Shown here in pieces: positions 36,745 through 49,565 of a DNA stretch of 64,000 nucleotides. Made by a program: the position numbers and the translations under genes. The notes below the pieces were generated by a model that was not told the origin of the DNA, made no database searches, and was given only the letters and a program-made list of their open reading frames with translations. The stretch lies in the NCBI GenBank assembly GCA_964580995.1, contig CAZOMV010000018.1:55-64054 (forward strand), written 5' to 3'. Origin of the DNA: an uncultured Pirellulales bacterium. GTDB lineage: Bacteria > Planctomycetota > Phycisphaerae > Sedimentisphaerales > SM23-30. Every line of letters begins with the position of its first letter. The stretch's first letter is position 1.

Positions 36745-36819
36745 TCGGGGCGACAGGACTTGAACCTGCGACCTCTTGACCCCCAGTCAAGCGCGCTAGC
36801 CAAACTGCGCCACGCCCCG
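36745..36819 (-). tRNA. tRNA-Pro (anticodon GGG)
   Basis: 75-nt cloverleaf drawn by hand. Acceptor CGGGGCG/CGCCCCG, anticodon stem CTTGA/TCAAG with loop CTGGGGG, T-loop TTCAAGT. No encoded CCA. Confidence 0.9.
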
Positions 36820-36905
36820 GATATTTACTTTTTAAATCATAAAGCATTATGCTACCACACTATTTTAAAAATTTCAATCATCTAAAGGAGGAAATAAAGT
36901 AAAAA

Positions 36906-36934
36906 TTGACAATTTGCCGGTTTTGTCTGAAAAT
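36906..36934 (+). promoter_or_regulatory. putative promoter, TTGACA-N17-GAAAAT
   Basis: Motif match about 77 nt upstream of the ADH ATG. Preceded by an A-tract. Confidence 0.3.
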
Positions 36935-37010
36935 GGTGCGGTTTTACGGATGTTATCCGTGTGTTTTTTGCAAGGAATGTTATTACTATCTTACTTTTAA
37001 GGACTTATCT

Positions 37011-38045
37011 ATGAAAGCGGTCATGCTCACAGGGGTCAGGAAGATGGAAATTCAGGAAATAGCCAAGCCGGTCATTCAAAAAGAGAATGAGGTTTTGCTC
37101 AAAATAGAGTATGTAGGGGTGTGCGGATCGGATGTGCATTATTATGTGGAGGGCCGGATCGGGACGGCGGTGGTGGAGTATCCGTATCTTATCGGACATG
37201 AATGTGCTGCGACGGTGGCGGAGGTGGGCAGGAAGGTGAGCCGGGTGAAGGTGGGCGATACGGTGGCGGTCAATCCGGCGGTTAGCTGTCATGTCTGTGA
37301 GCAATGCCGGATGGGGCGGGAGAATACCTGCTATCACGTGCAGTTTCTGGGAACGCCGGGGCAGGGACCGGGCTGTTTGCGGGAGTATATTGTGATGCCG
37401 GATGAATGTATATTTCCGATTACGGGAAAGCTGACGCTGGAGCAGGGAGTTATGTGCGAGCCGCTGTCGGTTGGGGTATATGCGGTGAAGCGGTCGCGGC
37501 TGGGCAAGGGGGATTCGATCGCGATTCTGGGGGCCGGGCCTATCGGCTTGTGTTGTCTGGAAGTGGCCAAGGCCCAAGGGGCGGGAGAATGCTTTGTGAC
37601 GGAAAAGATAGCGGAACGGGTTCGGATTGCGCAGGATCGGGCGGATTGGGTGGGCAATCCTGATGAGCAGGACATTGTGCAGGGGATTTTGCAGCGAAAG
37701 CCGCTGGGGGTGGATATGGTATTCGAATGTGCCGGGCAGCAGGAAACGGTGGATCAGGGCTTGAGTCTGTTGCGGTCGGGTGGGATCCTGGTACTGGTGG
37801 GAATACACCGCAAGGAACCAATCGCATTCAGCATGGAAAAGATGCGGCGGAAGGAACTTACGGTGATAAATATCCGCCGACAGAATGATTGCGACCAGCG
37901 GGCGATAGATATGGTTGCTTCGGGGGCGGTGGATGTTGATTTTATGGTGACGCATAAGTACGGTATGGACCAGGCGCAGGAGGCGTTTGAGCTGGTGGCT
38001 GGATACCGGGATGGAGTGGTAAAGGCCCTGATTCACATGGGATAG
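37011..38045 (+). CDS. zinc-dependent alcohol/polyol dehydrogenase (MDR family)
   Basis: GVCGSDVHYY and GHECAATV zinc motifs, GAGPIGL Rossmann motif. ATG at 37011; the TTG-extended ORF-track start looks non-coding. Confidence 0.85.
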   Translation: MKAVMLTGVRKMEIQEIAKPVIQKENEVLLKIEYVGVCGSDVHYYVEGRIGTAVVEYPYLIGHECAATVAEVGRKVSRVKVGDTVAVNPAVSCHVCEQCRMGRENTCYHVQFLGTPGQGPGCLREYIVMPDECIFPITGKLTLEQGVMCEPLSVGVYAVKRSRLGKGDSIAILGAGPIGLCCLEVAKAQGAGECFVTEKIAERVRIAQDRADWVGNPDEQDIVQGILQRKPLGVDMVFECAGQQETVDQGLSLLRSGGILVLVGIHRKEPIAFSMEKMRRKELTVINIRRQNDCDQRAIDMVASGAVDVDFMVTHKYGMDQAQEAFELVAGYRDGVVKALIHMG

Positions 38046-38058
38046 CCGGGAAAGGCAT

Positions 38059-39078
38059 ATGAGATTCAGGATAACAAGGTTTGCCATGTTGTGCATTGTT
38101 GGGATGTCTGGGCCGTCCTGTATTAGCCCCACTATAGAAACAAATCCTAATTCAGTAAATTTTGAATTTTATTCTTCCGGCGAAAATGAAATGCTTCTGG
38201 CATACAAGTATAACCTGGCGGAGGACTGGAAACTGCAGAAGATGGACCGGACCGGTTTTCGGTTTTTTACCGAACTGGAGGTCGTAAAAGAGGTTTGGTA
38301 CGAATTTGTCTCTCCAGCCACAAATACCTGGTACAAAAAGGATCCGCTCAATCCGGCGATTGACCATGATCATCCGTATCTGCGTCGGGAAATGACCGGG
38401 CGGCTGAGCAGTCGAAATCCGGATATTCGCTATTTTTCCAGCGAGCATTTTGATTATTTCACGACGGAATGGACGGATCGGACGGCGGAATTGGAAGAAC
38501 GATATCGTAAAATTATTATGCATCTGGCGATACTGAATATCGAGGCAGCGCCGGTGCATGGGAAGAAGATTCGCTATTACAGCAAACTGTTCGGCGGGAT
38601 GTATTCCCTGCCGGCCTCAGCAGAAGTTGTGGACGATATTGATATTATAAACGCCCATGAGATTATTCATCTGTTCTTGCATGACATGGCGAGATATCCG
38701 CCGCTGGCAGAGGGGTATGCGCAATGTTTTCAGGAATACGGGAACCGTAAACCCTTGCGGGAGGCGAATGTAAATCTGGCGGCCAAAGAGAAAATACGAA
38801 ACCAGGATTTGCTGGATGTTATGGAACATTGGCAGGAGAAGGCGGATTATCACCTGGCAGGTTCCTTTGTGTATTACCATTTGTTTGTGGATCGGGTTTT
38901 AACTCTTGACTTCATCGAACTTTCTAAAAAGCTGACCAGCGATCAGGTCAGTTATGCTGATTTTAAGGGTTTGTACCGGGATAGCATGAAGCGGGATATT
39001 GAAAAAACGGTTGGCGACTGGAAAACCTGGCTTTCGGGAATTGATGAAAATTCGAATGTGTATGTGAATTGGAATTAA
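38059..39078 (+). CDS. hypothetical protein with HExxH motif (putative metallopeptidase-like)
   Basis: 339 aa, hydrophobic N-terminus. INAHEIIHLFLHD contains HEIIH, with a downstream AEGYAQ. Confidence 0.5.
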   Translation: MRFRITRFAMLCIVGMSGPSCISPTIETNPNSVNFEFYSSGENEMLLAYKYNLAEDWKLQKMDRTGFRFFTELEVVKEVWYEFVSPATNTWYKKDPLNPAIDHDHPYLRREMTGRLSSRNPDIRYFSSEHFDYFTTEWTDRTAELEERYRKIIMHLAILNIEAAPVHGKKIRYYSKLFGGMYSLPASAEVVDDIDIINAHEIIHLFLHDMARYPPLAEGYAQCFQEYGNRKPLREANVNLAAKEKIRNQDLLDVMEHWQEKADYHLAGSFVYYHLFVDRVLTLDFIELSKKLTSDQVSYADFKGLYRDSMKRDIEKTVGDWKTWLSGIDENSNVYVNWN

Positions 39079-39096
39079 AATTATTCCTCCTTACTA

Positions 39097-39125
39097 TTGA
39101 CAAAACACATGTTGTGGTTTAATCT
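39097..39125 (+). promoter_or_regulatory. putative promoter, TTGACA-N17-TAATCT
   Basis: Motif match about 57 nt upstream of the ATG at 39182. Confidence 0.3.
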
Positions 39126-39181
39126 ATGTTCTTTGATGCAGGGAGGTTGTGAGCAATCATACCCTAGATTAGGATTTGATA

Positions 39182-39853
39182 ATGCGAAGAAAAAGAGCGA
39201 AAATATTAGTTGGAGTATTGCAAGTTATTCTGTTTTCCGGACTTGCGTCGCTTTGTTTATATGGCACGATGGTTATTGCCGCACCGGAGCCGGCGTTGGT
39301 ACCGCCGCCGGGAACGTGGCAACTGGATCTGGAATTGCATGGGGAACCCCAGCAGATTTCTATTACTATGCCAGGTGACAGCCAGCCGCGGCGATTCTGG
39401 TATCTGCTCTATACGATTACCAACAAGACGGGCCAGGATGTTGATTTGATCCCCCAGTTTGACCTGTACACGGATACTTTTCAGATTCGGCAAGCGGGGG
39501 TAAAGGTTCGGCGACCGGTTTTTGAGGCAATTCGGGACCGATATGCCAATTCGATTCCACTGCTGGAGCCGCAAAGCATGGTAACGGGCAGGATTTTGCA
39601 GAATGGGGATAATGCCCGTGATTCGGTGGCGATTTTTGAGGATTTTGACCCGAATGCGACGAGTGTGAAGATTTTTATTGCGGGTCTGAGCAATGAGACG
39701 GTAACGATTAAATCGCCATTAGTTTCGCAAGATAATTCAAAAGAGTTCTTGCTTCGCAAGACTTTAATGTTAGAATACCAAGTTCCAGGTGATCGTTATA
39801 ACCTGGATAAGCGGGTGATGCTGTATCGCAACCGTGAATGGATTATGCGATAA
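39182..39853 (+). CDS. hypothetical membrane-anchored/secreted protein
   Basis: [28 protein letters not shown] signal/anchor. No family recognised. Confidence 0.6.
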
Positions 39854-39907
39854 CGAACCGCGGACAGGCAAGCGAAAAATAGATAAGTTATTATTATAGG
39901 AATAGTT

Positions 39908-40147
39908 ATGGCACATAAAAAAGGACAAGGTTCATCAAGGAATGGTCGCGACAGCAATCCCCAGTATCGGGGTTTAAAGGCGTTTGGCGGCCAGGTAGTA
40001 AAGGCGGGTTCCATTATCGTACGCCAGTGCGGGACGCCGTTTAAGCCCGGGAAAAATGTTGGAATCGGCAGAGATAATACCCTGTATGCCCTGAGTGAGG
40101 GCAAGGTAGAATTTCAGGGCCGGCGAGTACATGTAGTAGTGGCGTAG
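39908..40147 (+). CDS. rpmA: 50S ribosomal protein L27
   Basis: [24 protein letters not shown]... is a canonical L27 N-terminus. Confidence 0.95.
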
Positions 40148-40300
40148 CTGGCCAGGTTGCAGTTGAATTGCAGCATGGAAATCGGCCGATCTACTATAAA
40201 GGTTATATTGGCAGGTGTTTGCGGCGATTCAGAAGAAATAGTTGAGTTTAATGAGAGCGGCAAAGAGGCTGCTCTCTTTTTTTTAGGTAGATTTTGGTAA

Positions 40301-41338
<1,038 letters not shown>

Positions 41339-41444
41339 TTGGTTTATAAGCAGTTATATTCGAGTTGGTATAGTCCTATAACCAATTCAGATTATAACGA
41401 ATGGGTAAGATGGGGCAATTGGGTAACTTTGATAAATGTTGAAT

Positions 41445-41515
41445 AAAGTATAGCAAAAGATGAAGGAAATGATGTAAAACATGGGTAAAACATATATAAA
41501 AGTATAGCAAAAGAT
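41445..41515 (+). repeat. exact 17-mer direct repeat, AAAGTATAGCAAAAGAT x2
   Basis: Copies at 41445-41461 and 41499-41515. Embedded in GGGTAA-type word repeats. Confidence 0.8.
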
Positions 41516-41630
41516 AGGTAAAAGTGGATGGTATTGGCACGTGGAAAGGGCCAAGAGGCCCGTTTTCGCGCCGCGGACGCTTGACCCAACCGACGCTCAC
41601 GCTGTTCGCTGCCATAACCAATTCGATGAG

Positions 41631-41706
41631 GGAAATTGCCCAGATTGACATCATGAAAAGATCGGACATATCTGAAAAATGAGACAGGTCGGACTTGTCG
41701 GACGAG
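41631..41706 (+). repeat. 63-nt repeat, copy A, with a GTCGGAC tandem tail
   Basis: ATTGCCCAGATTGACATCATGAAAAGATCGGACATATCTGAAAAATGAGACAGGTCGGACTTGTCGGAC. About 85% identical by eye to copy B. Confidence 0.8.
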
Positions 41707-41916
41707 GAACAAAAAGAAGTGTGAAGGTGAGAAAGTGCGAAAGGGGGTGGGGGAGAATTTGAACAAAAGGCAAGGAAGGGTACTGTGCGCAGGACGGATC
41801 GGCGTTGCCGGTGGAAGCTGGCATAGGGGGTGTTTTCCGCAATGTATCCCGCAAAGACGCAAAGGCGCCAAGGGGGGAAGGAAAGTACGAGTTGTGAATT
41901 ACGAATTAAGGGAGGG

Positions 41917-41979
41917 GAAGATTGCCTAAATTAACATCATGAAAAGTCGGACATAGCTGACAAATCGGACAGGTCGGAC
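41917..41979 (+). repeat. 63-nt repeat, copy B
   Basis: ATTGCCTAAATTAACATCATGAAAAGTCGGACATAGCTGACAAATCGGACAGGTCGGAC. Same orientation, 286 bp after copy A. Confidence 0.8.
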
Positions 41980-42274
41980 GGGGAAAAAGAATTTTAACCA
42001 CGAAGATCACCGAGGGCACGAAGGGGGGGAAGATGACAGCACGGACTAACACGGACTGGTACGGACACAGGGCAAGAAAGGGCAGTAGGCAGGGGGACGC
42101 TGCGCGAGAACAGTTGAGCAGGAGATCAGGGGAGCAGGTGAGAAGAAACAAAAGTCCGGCTCGGGCGCATGGGATGCCGGTTTCCCCCCGTGGCTGGCGC
42201 GGGGCGGAGGGGCCGACGGGATGAGACGGGGTATGCGGAAAAGGAGGGCCAGGGGGATTAAAAATATTAATGAA

Positions 42275-42303
42275 TTGACAAGGGGAGGAAATTGGGGGAG
42301 AAT
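42275..42303 (+). promoter_or_regulatory. putative promoter of the 1221-aa gene, TTGACA-N17-GAGAAT
   Basis: AT-rich UP-like stretch, then ATTGACAAGGGG. About 110 nt upstream of the ATG at 42414. The same 12-mer recurs at 47321. Confidence 0.35.
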
Positions 42304-42413
42304 CAGGGTCAGAATCGGAGATGTGCGGTGTTAATGCAAAAAAAAGATGGCAAGGAAAAGGGTATTTTATTTAGCCACCGGGATTGGGGCGAAAATTAAT
42401 AGTGTAGGTTAAA

Positions 42414-45400
42414 ATGCTTGAAGATTCGGATAGGCAAGAACTAAAAAAACGATTAAAGGAAATTGATGCTTCGGGATCAGTACCAGAACTGTACGAGGGG
42501 GCAGTTCAAATCATAGTCGATACAAATTTTCCTGCGGAAGCCAAAGTCCGATTTGTTGCCCATGCAGCAAGAGAAATTTGCACTAGGTTACCTTCTATAG
42601 TATCAGGTAAAACTATTGAAAGAATTGAAATTCAGAAAACACTCAAAGAACTGAAAAGTATTTTAAAATTAGAAGGTTTAGAAAATTTTCAATATGCCGA
42701 AAATTTAAATCCGTCCGTTCAGAATGATTTAATATCTGTTTCTCCTATACTAATAGAAAAAGTTCATGATATTTGTAAGTTGAATGATAAGATTGATGAA
42801 AATAGAGTTAAAAAGGCGGAAGCCTTGATAACCGAATTAGTACCCGAACATAAACATAATACGAAAGAAATAATTCCACTTATTAACGAATTCAAAAAAC
42901 TGGAAGATTATTTTCAAAAGCATACGCATCTAAGAAATGAGTCTGCAAAAACAGACACAAATGAGTTGCAAGAGAAATTTTATTTACTTGAGAATTTTCT
43001 GCATTCTCTTTGCGGCTATTTTTATTCCGGATATGAAAAAATTCGTCAGATTATTAAAGAAGCGAATGAAACAAATTGTGAGCCGGATCAGAATTTGGTT
43101 AATCGTGCACTTGTCGCAATGGGAACACCACAGTTTCTCAGATATTTTTATGAAAATATTAAAAGCCCATATTGGCTGGAAGCATTGAGAGAAAAGGGGT
43201 GTTTCAAAAATCCTCCCGATGCGGAAAAGGTGGGTAATGGTACACGATACCGCCATTGGCCGCAGGGGAAATATCTGGTTGCTATGGCAGAAAAGAAACC
43301 GGAACAGGTATTAGAAATCATTAACGGTATTGAGACAGATAATGTTCTGGTGATGCGTGATTGTTTTCAGGTGTTGGGGGCCATGCCGTTGAGGGTGGTG
43401 GTGCAAGGGATGGGATTGGTTCGGCGATTTTTAGAAAAGGAAGATATCTATCACGAATGGTTTTCTATCGGGGAACTGGCGGCTGAATTGATGGTGAAGC
43501 TGTCCGAGGAGGGATACGCAGATGAGGCATTTTGGATAGCGGAAAAGCTGCTGGCAGTGGAGATAAAAGAAAGCAAACATTTTCGAAGCTGGCATGACCT
43601 GGAAGGGAAATTTTTGTCTCATGAATATGATGAACTGGTATTTAAGTATTTTAAGCCGCTGTGGGAAAAGGACAAGCAGGGATTTCGGATTGGCAAGTTA
43701 TTGATCGACATACTTGATCAGCAGATTGAAATAGAGAAAAAACGGAAAGAAACGGAAACGGTACCTCCCGAATTGGCGGCAAAATGGGATGAGATCCTTA
43801 AAGAAGAAGAGAATGCAGAAGAGGAAGAAGAGGATTCGGAAGAATATGATCCCACAGAACATTCCTATATAACCATGCCGTCCCTGGCAAAGTTGGGAAC
43901 CGGCAGGGATATTGCGGAAACCCTGGTGGCGGCGATTTGCCAAATTGGGCAATATTTGATGGAAAATGAAGATTCCGAAACAACACATTTATTACAATTC
44001 CTGGGCGAAAAACGGAAGAATATTTTTGATCGTATCCGGATCCATGTTTTGCAGTATGCCAAAAATGATAGTTGGATGAAAGATATTGAAACCATTCTTG
44101 CTAACGAAAATTACTATGCCAACTATCGAATTGCTGCGGAATTCAAAGATCTGCTGGTAGCCAAGTGGGAAGACATTTCAGGACCGATAAAGGAGCAATA
44201 TATTTCCTGGGCAGAAGGACAAGAAATTGATGATGTGAACCGGTTTAAAGAATGGTTTGTAGAAACGCGGAAACGTGAACCTGAGCCTTCCGATATCGAT
44301 GCTTACAATCATTATTTGAAAGCGCAGGCATTGTATTGCGTCAAAGATAAAGGAGACGTACGGGAAAAATATCAGATGCATTTGCGGGAAAGTAAACGTG
44401 AGGAAGATACTGTAAAACCACGAGATTGGGGAGCTGTTGAAACATATTCACCGTCGTCACCGGAATACAGTCCGATGAGTCTGGAAGAAATGCAAATAAA
44501 ATCACCAAAAGAGGTAATTGATTATATTCGAGATTACGATTCCAAACATGATGATAAAAAGGAAATCAATAAATATGGTTTCCCGGTGGATCGGAAAGGG
44601 GCGTTATCATCTGCACTGAGTAACGACTTAAAAAATCGCATGGCTGAATATCTAGAGGTGGATATTTCGGCCATAATAAAACTATCCCATATTTATATTC
44701 GTGATATTTTATATGCCGTTCGAGAGTTAATACAAAACAAAAGCATTGAGGGTCCGGATTGTGACAAGATTCTTGAATTGTGCCAGAAGGTATATGATTT
44801 AGGGAAAGACGATCTGAAATATCGCGAAGCTATGATAACTATTTCCCGGATTTTTGAACCGGTTTTCAAAGGGGATCATTATAAAGAGATTGTCAACCCA
44901 GACCACCTGCAAGCGATGTGGGCGATTTTAGCTTCTTTATTGGATTATAAATATGATTTAGAAAAAGAAGAGGAGGAGGAGGAGAATACTGGGGATGCCT
45001 TTGAGAAGGGTACCAATCGAGTAGGCGGCGTCGCACTTGAAAATATAATTAGTTTCGGTTTGTTCTGCAAAAATCATAAGCGGGATTTATATGACAATAC
45101 ATATTCTGTTTCGTTAAAGGAAAAATTACAGCATGTACTGGATAATATAGAACGCAGGGAAATTCTATGTGTGTTGGGAGTCTTTTTTGTAAATCTATGC
45201 TGGTTAGAGGGGGAATGGGTACAGGGTAAGGTAAATCAAATTTTTCCAGGGGGTGATGAGCAAAAATGGAGAGATATTTGGGGATCGTATTTAAGATGGA
45301 GCCGGCCGATCAAGTTATCGTTTGAGATAGCGAGGGGAAAGTATTTGTATGCGGTGGAGAAGGTGGAAAAAATAGCGGCTTCCGATAAGGAAGAAGATTA

Positions 45401-46079
45401 TTCCAATCGTCTGATGGAGCATGTGATGTTGGCGTATTGGCAAGGGTGGACGGGTTTAGAGGAAAATGGATTAGTGAGGAAAATGCTGGATAAGATGGAT
45501 GATGCCATGAAGGGGGAGGCTGCTCACTGGTTGGCGACAGGATTTGGGTATTTAAAAGAACATGGACAAGACGAATGGAAAGAAGGGGTGATAAAGCGGC
45601 TGCGGGATTATTGGGGATTGCGGTATCAAGTAATGGAGAAGGAGGCAGCGGCCCATCGGGAAGAGGCCAACGAATTTGCCGGGTGGGTGAAAGATTCACC
45701 TTTGGAAGCGGATGAGACTATGGCGCTTGCGGAAAAGGCGGTCCGGCTGGCAGGGGGAATTACCGGCCGCAACCGGGGTATAGCGGATTTTGTGGAGGGG
45801 ATATATGCTATTTCCGAAGGCAGGGAATTGCGAGTTTTGGAGTTATTGTTATATATTCTGGAACAGGCGATTGGCGATCCGAATAGAGAGATTTGGGAAT
45901 GGCAATATGAGAGAACAAAAGAAATATTGGTAAAATTTATGGATGGGATATTGGAATTGAAGGATGACACACAGATAAATGAGATTCGGAAAACGGCAAA
46001 AGAGGTGGCGGATATTTTGGGGCGGATGGGGTGTGAGTATCTGGAGGAGCATTACCGAAGATTGGCAGAGAAAGAATAG
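42414..46079 (+). CDS. orphan large all-helical protein (1221 aa), function unknown
   Basis: Uninterrupted 3.7-kb ORF in AT-rich DNA. Helix-rich, with two poly-Glu linkers. No P-loop, HExxH, HNH, DEAD or other catalytic motif seen. Confidence 0.85.
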   Translation: MLEDSDRQELKKRLKEIDASGSVPELYEGAVQIIVDTNFPAEAKVRFVAHAAREICTRLPSIVSGKTIERIEIQKTLKELKSILKLEGLENFQYAENLNPSVQNDLISVSPILIEKVHDICKLNDKIDENRVKKAEALITELVPEHKHNTKEIIPLINEFKKLEDYFQKHTHLRNESAKTDTNELQEKFYLLENFLHSLCGYFYSGYEKIRQIIKEANETNCEPDQNLVNRALVAMGTPQFLRYFYENIKSPYWLEALREKGCFKNPPDAEKVGNGTRYRHWPQGKYLVAMAEKKPEQVLEIINGIETDNVLVMRDCFQVLGAMPLRVVVQGMGLVRRFLEKEDIYHEWFSIGELAAELMVKLSEEGYADEAFWIAEKLLAVEIKESKHFRSWHDLEGKFLSHEYDELVFKYFKPLWEKDKQGFRIGKLLIDILDQQIEIEKKRKETETVPPELAAKWDEILKEEENAEEEEEDSEEYDPTEHSYITMPSLAKLGTGRDIAETLVAAICQIGQYLMENEDSETTHLLQFLGEKRKNIFDRIRIHVLQYAKNDSWMKDIETILANENYYANYRIAAEFKDLLVAKWEDISGPIKEQYISWAEGQEIDDVNRFKEWFVETRKREPEPSDIDAYNHYLKAQALYCVKDKGDVREKYQMHLRESKREEDTVKPRDWGAVETYSPSSPEYSPMSLEEMQIKSPKEVIDYIRDYDSKHDDKKEINKYGFPVDRKGALSSALSNDLKNRMAEYLEVDISAIIKLSHIYIRDILYAVRELIQNKSIEGPDCDKILELCQKVYDLGKDDLKYREAMITISRIFEPVFKGDHYKEIVNPDHLQAMWAILASLLDYKYDLEKEEEEEENTGDAFEKGTNRVGGVALENIISFGLFCKNHKRDLYDNTYSVSLKEKLQHVLDNIERREILCVLGVFFVNLCWLEGEWVQGKVNQIFPGGDEQKWRDIWGSYLRWSRPIKLSFEIARGKYLYAVEKVEKIAASDKEEDYSNRLMEHVMLAYWQGWTGLEENGLVRKMLDKMDDAMKGEAAHWLATGFGYLKEHGQDEWKEGVIKRLRDYWGLRYQVMEKEAAAHREEANEFAGWVKDSPLEADETMALAEKAVRLAGGITGRNRGIADFVEGIYAISEGRELRVLELLLYILEQAIGDPNREIWEWQYERTKEILVKFMDGILELKDDTQINEIRKTAKEVADILGRMGCEYLEEHYRRLAEKE

Positions 46080-46114
46080 GACCTATAGGACTTATGGGAC
46101 ATATGGGACATATG
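46075..46114 (+). repeat. tandem 9-mer repeat, (T/A)AT(A/G)GGAC(N) x4.5
   Basis: AATAGGACC TATAGGACT TATGGGACA TATGGGACA TATG. Spans the stop of the 1221-aa gene and the ATG of the next gene. Confidence 0.85.
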
Positions 46115-46723
46115 AAAAAATCGGAGAATCAAACCTTTATTCCACCTCACGGCAATTATCAGGAATTGCTTTCCTATCAGAAAGCCGAGGCGGTCTATGA
46201 TCTGACTTACCGATTCTGCCAGCGGTTTCTGACAAAAGGCGACCGTACCATCGACCAGATGGTACAGGCGGCCCGATCCGGCAAGCAGAACATTGTGGAA
46301 GGCAGCAAGGCATCCGGAACCTCCAAGGAGATGGAGATCAAGCTAACCAATGTGGCGCGGGCCAGCTTAGAGGAATTGCTGGAAGATTACCGCGATTATC
46401 TGCGTGTTCGGGAGCTGGCCGTCTGGGACAAGGATTCCAAAGAGGCGCACTATGTGCGGAAGCTGGGGAACCGGTCGAATACGACGTATGAGACTTATCG
46501 GGAATTTTGCGAAACCCGAGAGGCTGAGGTGGTGGCCAATATCGCCATTTGCCTGATTCACCAGGTGAACTATTTATTGGATCAGCAGATCCGACGGCTG
46601 GAGCAAGATTTTCTCAAGAACGGCGGCTTGCGCGAGCGGATGACCCGCACCCGTTTGCAGGTACGGAATGAGACGAATAGGCTATCCCCAAAGAAGCCCG
46701 GTCCTCATGGAAAGAACCCATGA
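46112..46723 (+). CDS. four-helix-bundle protein (23S rRNA IVS / Avd-like family) with C-terminal suffix domain
   Basis: SYQKAEAVYDLTYRFCQRF...QMVQAARSGKQNIVEG...EELLEDYRDYL, then a YLLDQQIRRLEQDFLKNGGLRERMTRTR tail. Upstream in-frame MGHMGH is encoded by the 9-mer repeat. Confidence 0.8.
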   Translation: MKKSENQTFIPPHGNYQELLSYQKAEAVYDLTYRFCQRFLTKGDRTIDQMVQAARSGKQNIVEGSKASGTSKEMEIKLTNVARASLEELLEDYRDYLRVRELAVWDKDSKEAHYVRKLGNRSNTTYETYREFCETREAEVVANIAICLIHQVNYLLDQQIRRLEQDFLKNGGLRERMTRTRLQVRNETNRLSPKKPGPHGKNP

Positions 46724-47020
46724 GTCGCCAGGATAAAATCCAGAAGCTGTTGCAGGTGCGGAGGATAAGCCGATTTCCGTATAAGCGTTTTTGCGGAATC
46801 TATTTGGCGCATTGCCCGAGTTTTTTAAAAGCGAAGATAAACGTCTGGACCAAAAACAATTTCAGGCACTCATATAAGCCTATATCTTCAGCGAACAAGA
46901 ACCATTACGCGAGGATATTTTTAAATGTCTCGATAACCGGCTGCAAGCCAAATCCATCGGCCAGCGGATCATCGACAAGATGAAACAGTTTGTCGATGTG
47001 TTTATTAGGGGGATGGCCGG

Positions 47021-47063
47021 ATAGGAGGACATAAAGGGCATATGGGCCAATAGGACGGGATGG
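47021..47063 (+). repeat. degenerate 9-10-mer word repeats related to 46075-46114
   Basis: ATAGGAGGAC ATAAAGGGC ATATGGGCC AATAGGACGG. An inverted relative (GGACATTGGTCCTATTATAGG) lies at about 47380-47400. Confidence 0.6.
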
Positions 47064-47111
47064 AAAATTACAGATTTGAAAATTGAGATTTGAGAGAAAG
47101 AGAAATCCTGG

Positions 47112-47131
47112 ATTCCTGCTTCCGCAGGAAT
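47112..47131. repeat. hairpin ATTCCTGC-TTCC-GCAGGAAT
   Basis: Perfect 8-bp inverted repeat. One frame reads ...PAFAGMT..., a repeat I recall from other bacteria. Confidence 0.55.
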
Positions 47132-47180
47132 GACCATCGGGCGGGGGAATGGAATATGGGGATGATGAATAGACGGGATG

Positions 47181-47214
47181 GAAGAGCACGGCCAAGATGG
47201 CTGTGGCACAATTC
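47181..47214 (+). repeat. dispersed hairpin repeat copy (GAAGAG-CACGGCC-AAGAT-GGCTGTG-GCACAATTC)
   Basis: Aligns with 21485-21517 and 54751-54783. Confidence 0.7.
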
Positions 47215-47430
47215 GAGGAGGAAAGAGCTGGCCAGGGGCCAGCGAGCCAGGAGGGAATTGCGCGAAAATGGCCGCTGGGAATGGCCAATAGTGCGCAAGG
47301 TAAAAAAAAATTTGTTGAGGATTGACAAGGGGTTACGGCGATTTCGGGGGAAAAAAATGGGGAAAACCTTGCGCAGTTGTGGACATTGGTCCTATTATAG
47401 GAAGGCAGGTTTTGCGAAGAAAAAAAGGGA

Positions 47431-47459
47431 TTGACAGCGGGTGGCCGGCTAGATAGACT
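47431..47459 (+). promoter_or_regulatory. putative promoter, TTGACA-N17-TAGACT
   Basis: Motif match about 95 nt upstream of the GTG at 47553. Confidence 0.35.
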
Positions 47460-47552
47460 GCGAAGGACAGAACAGTAAAGTATAGTACACCCCTGTTGTT
47501 TTGCCGCTGGTTTTTTTTGGCAGTTGATGTACGAAACGGAAAGGAGCGAATC

Positions 47553-49565
47553 GTGATTTGGAGCAAATCGGGATATGGGAGTGTTGTTGTTTTTTTATTT
47601 TTGGTGAGTGGTTCTTGTTGGGCGGTGGAGCCGGGGGCGGAGGAGATGGCGGGGAGTAAGGCCTGGTTTGAGGAGTATTTGGGGGCGGAGGCTACAGGCG
47701 TTCCGTTTTCGTTTGTATATGAGGGGAAAGCCTCTTCGGAGATTCTGGCCGGCTGGAAAAGGGAGTTTGGCGGGCAGGAATTGGCGGGCGGGCGGCGAGC
47801 GAGTACGGTGAGCTGGACGGAACCCAAGTCGGGGCTGGTGGTTCGCTGTGAGGCGATATGGTATCCGGATTTTCCGACGGTGGAGTGGGTTCTGTATTTC
47901 AAGAACGGCGGGGGCAGCGATACGGCGCTACTCGAGAAGATTCAGCCGCTGGATCTATCTTTACCGGCGAAGGCAGAAGGGGATTTTGTGCTGCGTTATA
48001 ACCGGGGCAGCGGGTGCGGGGCGAATGATTTTGAGCCGAAGGAAGTGTTATTGAGCAAAGGGGTGGAGGCCCGGCTTGCCGCGGAGACAGGTTTTTCGAC
48101 CGGCAGTATGGCCATGCCGTATTTCAATCTGAAGGGTCCTGAGGAAGGCAAGGTGATTGCGCTGGGGTGGCCGGGACAGTGGGCGGCGGGATTTACGCGG
48201 GGAGCGGAGGGTGGTTTGCATATCCAGGGAGGACAGGAATTGACGCATTTTCGGCTGCGACCCGGAGAAGAGGTTCGCAGTCCGCAGGTGGTGATGGAAT
48301 GGTACCGGGGGGACTGGATACGGGGACAGAATATATGGCGGCGGTGGATGCGGGCGCACAATGAGCCGCGGCCGGGCGGGCAGGCCCTGAAGCCGGTGCT
48401 TTCGGCCTGTTGTGCAACGGTGCTGGGTTTTACCGGGATGACGGAAGAGAAGCAATATGAATATTTGAATCGGTATCTGGAGGAAAAGATGCCGCTGGAC
48501 CGCTGGTGGATTGATGCCGGGTGGTTTCCGGTGCCGGAAGGGGCGCCGTGGTGGAACTATGGGACGTGGACGCCCGACCCGGTGCGGTTTCCCAATGGCA
48601 TGAAACCGGTTATGGATTATGCGCATGCGAAAGGCTTGCAGACGGTGCTGTGGTTTTGTACGGAGACGGTGCGGCCGGGGACCTGGCTGGAGCAGAATCA
48701 TCCGCAGTGGCTGGTGCCGCAGTTGGAGTATGGGCAGCGTTCGCTTTTGAATCTGGCGAATCCGGAGGCGCATCAATGGGCGGTGGAGCATATCAATCGC
48801 AGTATCGATGAATACGGCGTGGATGTGTATCGCCATGACAACGAGATCGGGGCGTTGCCGCTGTGGTGGAGCCAGGACGCAGAGGACCGGCAGGGGATTA
48901 CCGAGATTCAGTATGTGACGAATTTTCTGTCGCTGTATGATGAGATATTGCGGCGGCATCCGAAGATGCTGATCGACAACTGCTGTGCGGGCGGGCGGCG
49001 GAACGATGTGGCGACGCTGCGACGGTCGGTGCCGTTGTGGCGGAGCGATGTTTGGGGAGCGCCGACGCCGATGCAGTCGATGACGTATGGGCTGGCGATG
49101 TGGATTCCCTATTTCGGGCATATGACCGGGTATTTTGATCCTTATACGTTCCGCAGTAATATGTACCCCAGCGGCATAATGGATTTTGATGTGCTCAATC
49201 GAAACCAGAATTACGATTTGCTCCGGAAGCTGCTGGGCCAGTGGCGGATGGTGGCGGATAATTTTCTGGGGGATTATTATCCGCTGACGCCCTACAGCCT
49301 GGAGGAGACGGTGTGGATGGCGTGGCAGTTTGACCGGCCGGAGGCGGGGGAGGGGATGGTGCAGGTTTTCCGGCGGCCGGGGAACGATATTTTCGGCCGG
49401 AATATCAAATTGCAGGGACTGAAACCGGAGGCCAGCTATACGCTGAAAGATATGGATCGGGAGGATAGCTGGACGGCCAGCGGGAAGGAGCTGATGGAGA
49501 AGGGGATTCATCTGGTGATCGAGCAGCAGCCGGCGGCGGTAATTATTACGTATAAAGCATTATGA
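47553..49565 (+). CDS. secreted clan GH-D (GH36-like) hydrolase, paralog of 11847-14552
   Basis: AAAGGAG RBS 6 nt before the GTG at 47553. Signal-like VVVFLFLVSGSCWA. RWWIDAGWF, LWFCTETV, YRHDNE and DNCCAGGRRND motifs colinear with the first paralog. Confidence 0.75.
   Translation: MIWSKSGYGSVVVFLFLVSGSCWAVEPGAEEMAGSKAWFEEYLGAEATGVPFSFVYEGKASSEILAGWKREFGGQELAGGRRASTVSWTEPKSGLVVRCEAIWYPDFPTVEWVLYFKNGGGSDTALLEKIQPLDLSLPAKAEGDFVLRYNRGSGCGANDFEPKEVLLSKGVEARLAAETGFSTGSMAMPYFNLKGPEEGKVIALGWPGQWAAGFTRGAEGGLHIQGGQELTHFRLRPGEEVRSPQVVMEWYRGDWIRGQNIWRRWMRAHNEPRPGGQALKPVLSACCATVLGFTGMTEEKQYEYLNRYLEEKMPLDRWWIDAGWFPVPEGAPWWNYGTWTPDPVRFPNGMKPVMDYAHAKGLQTVLWFCTETVRPGTWLEQNHPQWLVPQLEYGQRSLLNLANPEAHQWAVEHINRSIDEYGVDVYRHDNEIGALPLWWSQDAEDRQGITEIQYVTNFLSLYDEILRRHPKMLIDNCCAGGRRNDVATLRRSVPLWRSDVWGAPTPMQSMTYGLAMWIPYFGHMTGYFDPYTFRSNMYPSGIMDFDVLNRNQNYDLLRKLLGQWRMVADNFLGDYYPLTPYSLEETVWMAWQFDRPEAGEGMVQVFRRPGNDIFGRNIKLQGLKPEASYTLKDMDREDSWTASGKELMEKGIHLVIEQQPAAVIITYKAL

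Follow-up and report, generated by a model that had tools for sequence, protein, structure and literature searches.

The defence protein DSR2 is composed of SIR2 and an alpha-solenoid C-terminal domain, which senses phage tail tube protein. In the family of four-helix-bundle (4HB) or 23S rRNA intervening sequence (IVS) proteins (PF05635, TIGR02436 with the TIGR04258 suffix) the studied member is Avd of the diversity-generating retroelements (DGRs), and to our knowledge no function has been assigned to 4HB members outside DGRs. DSR1 (defence-associated sirtuin 1) reportedly goes back to Gao et al. in 2020. It was found to deplete NAD+ upon infection (bioRxiv 10.1101/2021.12.14.472415; Garb et al. 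2022), and a preprint of January 2026 described the TPR sensor of Avs7 as common to Dsr1 and about 9,000 proteins (PMC12803255). The effectors borne by this sensor comprise NADase, nuclease, kinase, HEPN-like, MBL, transmembrane and unknown modules, split proteins included; toxicity as well as defence of such proteins need the N-terminal effectors, and the phage major capsid protein triggers both SeAvs7 and EcDsr1 (PMC12803255). 23S_rRNA_IVP genes, for their part, have been reported within cas loci, for each of the three types of CRISPR (PMC3936711). In the present study a locus was analysed that holds members of both families side by side. It lies in a stretch of 64,000 nucleotides from an uncultured Pirellulales bacterium (assembly GCA_964580995.1, contig CAZOMV010000018.1; hereafter the window), where a gene of 1221 codons, here called the large gene, is followed on the same strand by a 4HB-suffix gene of 209 codons.

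A preliminary description of this DNA had taken the two genes for one AT-rich module, made up of an orphan helical protein and an Avd-like partner. The ~6-kb interval between obg and a GH36 gene is better explained as a small, turned-over defence island with two unrelated items, a Dsr1/Avs7-family sensor gene and an independent 4HB gene, a reading to which we assign a probability of about 0.72. The pair of "orphan plus Avd-like" protein is hence removed as a false lead for a new two-gene system, and the large gene joins a sensor family whose trigger class, a phage capsid protein, has just been reported.

Results

The large protein and its relatives

The PADLOC model of Dsr1 (PDLC04166) matched residues 521-1091 of the large protein with E 6.4e-28 (profile positions 585-1119 of 1227), and a hidden Markov model (HMM) of the family aligned to residues 302-1164 of a 1302-aa "SIR2 family protein" from a Bacillus thuringiensis plasmid (E 5.9e-51), which is everything after the SIR2 domain of that protein. 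A word-indexed search, probably swamped by poly-E tracts, returned 4 close relatives only (47-50% identity); an exhaustive HMMER search found 2,618 clusters at 50% identity with E<=1e-3, 1,351 with E<=1e-10 and 141 with E<=1e-30. With the Dsr1 match and these clusters at hand, the large protein can no longer be called an orphan without an assignable motif, as had been proposed. End-to-end alignments were obtained with the relatives P0002 (50% identity, 99% coverage) and P0010 (34%, residues 4-1200).

Other searches were negative. The large protein had nothing significant in Pfam, NCBIfam, PHROGs or the PDB sequences, no P-loop or NACHT/AAA match in the Pfam scan, no SIR2 or SIR2_2 within residues 1-520 by Pfam, NCBIfam or PADLOC, and no match to the PADLOC Dsr2 model. 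Viral contigs, scanned with the large protein and with the 4HB protein, matched neither, and a first scan of genome contigs was likewise without a match; an alignment of 81 sequences proved too diverse to serve as search query. The Foldseek comparison of an AlphaFold model that had been suggested for this locus was of partial use: the full-length AlphaFold2 (AF2) model, built on a 4-sequence alignment, was all-helical with a predicted local distance difference test (pLDDT) score of 56 and a predicted template modelling (pTM) score of 0.35, and retrieved only generic solenoids (CAND1, importins, Ski3), and the N-terminal domain alone reached pLDDT 77, with no match in the PDB.

Architectures were read from the best 150 relatives of the exhaustive search. 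Most common are proteins of ~930-1000 aa that consist of the core only and begin at about residue 205-245 of the window protein; a second group of ~1130-1210 aa carries the same N-terminal domain as the window protein, and a third a divergent version of it. Loci of the family were taken from species-representative genomes (13) and metagenome contigs (3). The hosts of the 13 are mostly Planctomycetota (Sedimentisphaerales, Pirellulales, Phycisphaerae), to which one Syntrophaceae and one ANME-1 archaeon are added.

Among the relatives the place ahead of the sensor is variably filled. SIR2_2 genes lie directly upstream of core-only genes with overlapping stop and start (L008, L011, L014), and in L018 an IS3-type insertion parts the SIR2 gene from the core gene; DUF4062 genes lie directly upstream of core genes in L003, L013 and L015; in L010 an AAA_16/STAND-like ATPase is fused to the sensor (AAA_16, 4e-10); and in P0062 an HD-type phosphohydrolase-like motif, read from the sequence and without support from domain searches, stands ahead of the divergent version of the window-type N-terminal domain. 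SIR2, DUF4062, AAA_16, the HD-like motif and the helical N-terminal domain are thus all found at one junction of the sensor, and the partner genes (SIR2, DUF4062) lie upstream of it, never downstream. Sensor-containing proteins from five relatives were scanned, and four of them matched the PADLOC Dsr1 model (E 1e-17 to 5e-29), the one exception being the protein of L012, which has a window-type N-terminal domain and had no PADLOC match; the upstream SIR2 proteins matched the SIR2 models of ThsA, LmuA and Dsr1. Because the Dsr1 model matches, because SIR2, DUF4062 and ATPase modules accompany the relatives and because the Bacillus SIR2 protein aligns as described, the large family is, judged by sequence, the sensor module of Dsr1, fused or split and combined with alternative output modules.

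In every one of the 14 loci whose flanks could be measured, the family gene is richer in AT than its surroundings. Genes of the family are often disrupted by insertion sequence (IS) elements or frameshifts (L002, L004, L018, L103). Among their neighbours are Cas1/Cas2, Abi_2, IS elements and RhuM. The Dsr1-sensor homology, the partners of the relatives, the AT-richness and the neighbouring Cas1/Cas2, Abi_2 and IS elements make it very likely that the large gene is an acquired conflict or defence gene. The conflict or defence module that had been supposed would accordingly hold for the large gene as a relative of the Dsr1/Avs7 sensors, but the 4HB gene appears to be no part of it.

Two of these loci are of some interest in themselves. 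A metagenome-assembled genome of the Sedimentisphaerales (L018, 1627-9796) contains what looks like a decaying defence island with Abi_2, SIR2, an IS3-family element and a Dsr1-like sensor gene, together with a frameshifted 4HB-suffix gene and a transposase-like ORF. In Nostoc sp. EfeVER01 (L004, 8001-11460) an IS630-type transposase and more ORFs come after a gene with the window-type N-terminal domain, and the transposase may have interrupted this gene; Cas1/Cas2 genes are located ~4-5.5 kb upstream of it.

The N-terminal domain

In an alignment of 46 N-terminal regions R53 and H172 were invariant and H50 was conserved in at least 90% of the sequences; in one of 64 sequences H50 and R53 were invariant, and E54 and H172 reached at least 90%. 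All four residues are intact in the window protein. The AF2 model of the domain, based on the 64-sequence alignment, is an all-helical bundle (pLDDT 77, pTM 0.63) with confidence above 90 across residues 1-60 and much of 160-235. Nine of 46 relatives of the domain matched PF18165 (pP_pnuc_1) below its gathering threshold (at most 22.7 versus 26.3 bits), over the first ~60 profile positions (less than half of the profile) and around the conserved AH..RE helix; the window domain itself did not match PF18165. A reading as HEPN was rejected, there being no Rx4-6H motif and the conserved pattern consisting of HxxRE and a distant His. That the domain is an output module with an activity directed at nucleic acid is our leading but weak guess. 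It is widespread, conserved and structurally unmatched, and it occupies the effector position of a validated immune sensor, which makes it a candidate for a new effector activity. Taken as a whole, the large gene adds, by sequence comparison, a variant with a new presumed effector to the Dsr1/Avs7 family of sensors already known.

The 4HB-suffix gene

The preliminary description was right in recognising a 4HB protein with suffix domain behind the 1221-aa ORF: the protein scored 84.6 bits for the TIGR04258 suffix domain (cutoff 40, E 3e-24) and 31.8 bits for TIGR02436 (cutoff 24, E 1e-7), and PF05635, at 29.5 bits, stayed under its cutoff of 33.8. The intergenic gap of 32 nt given there applies to the third in-frame ATG at 46112 (MKKSENQ...), but the first ATG (46094) follows the large gene after only 14 nt, and the first two in-frame ATGs fall within a short repeat.

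A metagenome scan for the 4HB gene gave at least 600 stretches and at least 523 confirmed relatives, and contexts were read from the best 80 (65-86% identity; 497 kb altogether, with over 3 kb of upstream sequence in 29 of them). The large family occurs in none of these 80 loci. Clustering of their 135 neighbours gave 113 clusters. Among the contexts that recur are hsdM on the upstream and hsdS on the downstream side (8 loci each by Pfam, with N6_Mtase/HsdM_N upstream and Methylase_S downstream), so that ~8-10 of the 80 are arranged as hsdM-4HB-hsdS (L046, L054, L044, L051, L042, L019, L024, L047; L022 and L079 by sequence), and hsdR completes the arrangement in L046 and L054, among others; further copies lie directly after thiC (6 loci) and ilvD (3 loci). 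No literature on an association of 4HB with hsdM was found. Upstream neighbours were co-oriented in 47 of 67 cases with a median gap of 105 nt, and members of the 4HB-suffix family as a rule stand close behind a gene unrelated to them, in the same orientation. The GC content of these genes tracks that of their hosts (r 0.65).

Seen from the large family, a 4HB-suffix gene was present in one of the 16 other loci, L018, where it is frameshifted and begins 416 nt downstream of the core gene; no 4HB gene follows the family gene in L002, L006-L010 and L012-L017. On the question, raised in the preliminary description, of how often a gene of this type adjoins large-protein homologues, these loci speak against a conserved pair. 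Between the 4HB proteins of the window and L018 the bundles are 59% identical and the suffix regions 39%, and unrelated metagenome copies come as close as 86% to the window protein; the two large proteins are 24% identical. GC is discordant too, with 36% in the large gene and 55% in the 4HB gene of L018. Because co-occurrence counts, GC and sequence relationships all disagree, the 4HB gene is best regarded as an independent, host-like, highly conserved and widespread small gene and as no dedicated partner of the large protein.

What is left of a type I restriction gene, a pseudogene fragment from the 3' end of hsdR, begins 30 nt past the 4HB stop and corresponds to the last ~90 HsdR codons. 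In tblastn residues 878-942 of the 943 of a Sulfitobacter HsdR matched it with E 2.4e-7; the match is a plasmid protein annotated "type I restriction endonuclease subunit R", and the matching part is the last 65 codons of an hsdM-hsdS-hsdR operon. Residues ~610-658 of the HsdR proteins of L054 and L022, taken from hsdM-4HB-hsdS-hsdR metagenome loci, matched the proximal part (E 0.003-0.006). An 87-aa ORF at 46720-46983 overlaps the relic in another frame, has no family match and looks spurious. Because the relic lies directly downstream, the 4HB gene may be tied to a former type I restriction-modification (R-M) locus, and most simply it would be the survivor of a decayed hsdM-4HB-hsdS-hsdR locus. 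Such a locus, with the 4HB gene lying inside it, would have lost hsdS and most of hsdR, and the AT-rich Dsr1-like gene would have come to occupy the upstream side of the 4HB gene.

The repeat around the first 4HB ATGs is an array with a period of 9 nt (Table 1), whose self-identity at lag 9 is 0.89. The pattern GGAC-N5-GGAC-N5-GGAC occurs at this array only in the 64 kb (0.01 expected). Upstream of 76 homologous 4HB genes the best 27-nt self-identity was 0.65 at lag 9, compared with 0.47 in control DNA and 0.41-0.44 when other lags were taken; the single units look like TAGGACCTA, TAGGTCCTA or ATGGGAAnA, often in forward plus reverse-complement order, and in L019-L098 the leader stands ~30-150 nt ahead of the 4HB start. 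A similar CACGGAC array precedes the 4HB gene of L018 (L018 9040-9160), and arrays of the related CGGAC type occupy the spacer between obg and the large gene. Leaders with such a 9-nt array are a hallmark of 4HB-suffix genes and might be binding arrays of the iteron kind or stems of the IVS kind; the leader RNA did not fold better than shuffled sequence (z -0.13). No description of such a leader was found in the literature.

Composition and surroundings of the locus

The large gene is the lowest 3.7-kb stretch of the window in GC (40.9%, GC3 39.8%; window mean 54.5%), and its composition is foreign. The 4HB gene (52.4%, GC3 63.8%) is 11.5 points higher and resembles host genes. The AT-richness ascribed to the module, and likewise its character as an acquired cassette, can thus be retained for the large gene, to which the defence neighbours of its relatives add, but not for the host-like 4HB gene. 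The flanks had been named correctly as obg (40316-41338) and a GH36/melibiase-like gene (47496-49565); their GC, formerly put at 67%, was computed as 55.4% and 57.5%. Integrase-, transposase- and reverse transcriptase (RT)-type domains are missing from the neighbouring ORFs scanned, in agreement with the preliminary description. Around the module att-like direct repeats amounted to short motif matches with no real alignment, no long near-identical repeat pair was found in 41300-47600, and Rfam had no match in 41000-47700. The sole tRNA (Pro, 36745-36819) is 5.6 kb off and no obvious integration site.

Table 1. Features of the locus between obg and the GH36 gene; positions are those of the window.
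Feature	Position	Strand	Remarks
Spacer between obg and large gene	41339-42413	+	Non-coding, 1.07 kb, 66% purine
Promoter-like TTGACA-17-GAGAAT	42275-42303	+	Inside motif ATTGACAAGGGG; two more copies of the motif, at 47321 and 47430, precede the GH36 gene
Large gene, putative Dsr1/Avs7-sensor-family defence protein, 1221 aa	42414-46079	+	Intact; N-terminal helical domain and alpha-solenoid sensor
N-terminal helical domain, residues 1-~205, presumed output/effector module	42414-43028	+	H50, R53, E54 and H172 conserved
Alpha-solenoid sensor core, residues ~206-1221	43029-46076	+	PADLOC Dsr1 model covers residues 521-1091 (nt 43974-45686)
9-nt-periodic array TAGGACCTA TAGGACTTA TGGGACATA TGGGACATA	46078-46113	+	Spans stop of large gene and first ATGs of 4HB gene
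4HB-suffix gene	46094-46723	+	209 aa from first ATG, 203 aa from 46112; TIGR04258 and TIGR02436
Relic of 3' end of type I restriction hsdR	46755-47024	+	Pseudogene; in-frame stops 46782-46784 and 46875-46877

The TTGACA promoter candidate claimed for the pair is present in the sequence, but it is a consensus match alone, and such sites are not in excess in the region (11 versus 12.7 expected from shuffles). The motif ATTGACA(A/G)(G/C)GGG after an A-run occurs exactly three times in the window (42274, 47321 and 47430, all +), the first copy preceding the large gene and the other two the GH36 gene, and may be a host -35/UP-type promoter element. The spacer contains two direct repeats of ~70 nt (41630-41703 and 41916-41979) and, between 41690 and 42066, its CGGAC arrays, among them all four CGGAC-N3-9-CGGAC matches of the window (1.0 expected).

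A relative, L099 (85.5% nucleotide identity), is syntenic with positions 36788-41354, which comprise an ADH gene, two unknown genes, rpmA and obg. Divergence sets in right after the obg stop (after 41354), and the contig of L099 itself ends 95 nt further. The break places the left border of the variable region at the obg stop and is consistent with a strain-variable region. The two unknown genes (38059-39078, 339 aa, and 39176-39853, 225 aa, both +, between the ADH gene and rpmA), which are conserved and also occur in L099, had no match in Pfam, NCBIfam, PADLOC or PHROGs. Over ~22000-60000 of the window GC skew is strongly positive (0.2-0.5, + strand) in coding and non-coding DNA alike, and large ORFs are mostly on the + strand.

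Discussion

Trigger, activation step and enzymatic activity of the large protein may be envisaged as follows. Residues ~206-1221 would act as a sensor that binds a phage protein, just as the sensors of characterised relatives bind a structural one, in EcDsr1 and SeAvs7 the major capsid protein; binding would relieve autoinhibition or drive oligomerisation; the activated N-terminal domain would then act toxically, most likely on nucleic acid, and the toxicity would stop phage replication or abort the infected cell. The 4HB gene, in turn, is a common and independent resident of defence islands, and the excess of such genes beside defence genes is modest.

Several observations weigh against this interpretation of the interval as an island of two unrelated items. 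The full-length AF2 model, at its low confidence (pLDDT 56), gives no view of a bilobed Dsr1/Avs7 architecture. The N-terminal domain had no significant match in Pfam, NCBIfam, the PDB profile search or Foldseek against the PDB (best E 0.3), and the HD-like motif of P0062 before the same domain suggests that the helical domain could be an adaptor or regulator. As to the 4HB gene, its putative R-M origin rests on the hsdR relic and on the arrangement in other loci, and the window holds no remnant of hsdM or hsdS. A 4HB gene is directly downstream in two of the ~13 large-family loci with downstream sequence (the window and L018); with no other 4HB-suffix gene in ~160 kb of large-family flanks, this exceeds the background density and leaves room for a looser functional link between the 4HB gene and the large family.

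Four rivals have to be weighed. A HEAT/TPR-like scaffold that serves housekeeping or structure and takes no part in phage defence would agree with the generic structural matches to alpha-solenoids and with the want of an enzymatic Pfam domain in the window protein, but is hardly credible in view of the specific Dsr1 HMM match, the SIR2, DUF4062 or ATPase effectors encoded beside or fused to the sensor in relatives, the patchy taxonomic distribution, the foreign GC, the frequent disruption by IS elements or frameshifts, and Cas1/2 and Abi_2 among the neighbours. Somewhat unlikely is a non-enzymatic, adaptor or autoinhibitory N-terminal domain, with the toxicity coming from a separate protein or from oligomerisation of the sensor. 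It would suit the HD-like motif fused ahead of the domain in P0062 and the window domain being without catalytic family or structural match; yet four polar residues (H50, R53, E54 and H172), strongly conserved in 46-64 divergent sequences, look catalytic or ligand-binding, the domain is weakly similar to a predicted nuclease family and stands exactly where SIR2 stands in DSR1, and the members that bear it in L001, L009 and L012 have no conserved second gene.

A dedicated, co-transferred two-gene system, in which the large protein would be scaffold or sensor and the 4HB-suffix protein its Avd-like, nucleic-acid-binding partner, would account for the common strand, the gap of 14-32 nt, the lack of a terminator-like site between the genes, the second co-occurrence in L018 and the low background density of 4HB genes in the sampled flanks. 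The co-occurrence counts (0/80 from the side of the 4HB gene, 1/16 from that of the large family) largely refute it, however, and with them the claim of an undescribed system of scaffold or sensor plus 4HB protein falls; a design of sensor plus variable effector is in fact known (PMC12803255). Further points against it are the loci without a 4HB gene after the family gene, the split in GC in the window and in L018, 4HB proteins more alike to unrelated copies than to each other, 4HB genes that follow hsdM, thiC, ilvD and ~100 other genes just as tightly, the hsdR relic right behind the window copy, and the position of partner genes upstream of the sensor in relatives, so that such a system is very improbable. 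The 4HB-suffix genes might instead be accessories or "guests" that go with defence loci in general (type I R-M, CRISPR-Cas, Dsr1-like sensors), be it as nucleic-acid-binding regulators acting through the 9-nt leader or as selfish cassettes homing into defence islands; the adjacency in the window would then be meaningful at the level of the defence island and not specific to the large protein. The recurrent hsdM-4HB-hsdS order, the 23S_rRNA_IVP genes of cas loci (PMC3936711), the two downstream copies in large-family loci, 4HB genes in strain-specific gene lists of Arthrospira and the conserved leader, which suggests a cis element of their own, point that way. Since many copies lie behind housekeeping genes such as thiC and ilvD or unrelated singletons, non-DGR members lack a known function, and the proximity to defence genes was counted within the sampled loci, we regard this as unlikely.

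Quite unlikely, but far-reaching, is that 4HB-suffix proteins and their 9-nt leaders form an autonomous element that specifically enters defence operons or regulates them (type I R-M between hsdM and hsdS, cas loci, and Dsr1-like sensors as in the window and L018), or, as a second possibility, that the helical N-terminal domain with its H-R-E...H pattern represents a new type of enzyme among immune effectors. If the autonomous element were real, a general and undescribed relation between Avd-like four-helix bundles and bacterial immunity would follow. Independently of this, the leader and the repeated occurrence of 4HB-suffix genes between hsdM and hsdS offer a starting point for tests on the 23S-rRNA-IVS/4HB family, which has long gone unexplained.

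Compared with known systems, the second gene of the window is a bona fide suffix-bearing member of the 4HB/23S rRNA IVS family. It differs from DGR Avd in that the scanned neighbouring ORFs hold no RT-type domain and no template/variable repeat pair is nearby, and from the 23S rRNA IVS proteins in that it is not inside an rRNA gene; its context is a defence island, as in the copies at hsdM/hsdS and in cas loci. With PF18165 (pP_pnuc_1), a predicted pPIWI-associating nuclease, relatives of the N-terminal domain share partial, sub-threshold matches and the window sequence none. DSR2 shares the design logic of the large protein, with an N-terminal effector and a long sensor of helical repeats to which a phage structural protein binds, but its PADLOC model shows no sequence match. 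Avs7 proper carries a STAND NTPase between effector and sensor, which is missing in the window protein and has a counterpart, an AAA_16 of STAND type, in L010 only.

The likeness to DSR1 is closer: a single protein of ~1,200 aa with an N-terminal effector module, whose C-terminal ~1,000 aa are homologous to the window protein, and close relatives of the latter are split DSR1s, in which the SIR2 gene stands ahead of a separate sensor gene. The window protein is without SIR2 and bears a helical domain of ~205 aa instead, so that NAD+ depletion is not to be assumed for it. With the Avs7/Dsr1 superfamily at large, to which its sensor is linked indirectly, through the Dsr1 HMM and the alignment to the SIR2 protein, it shares a homologous sensor that is combined with many alternative N-terminal effectors, occurs in split forms and has evidently been transferred horizontally.

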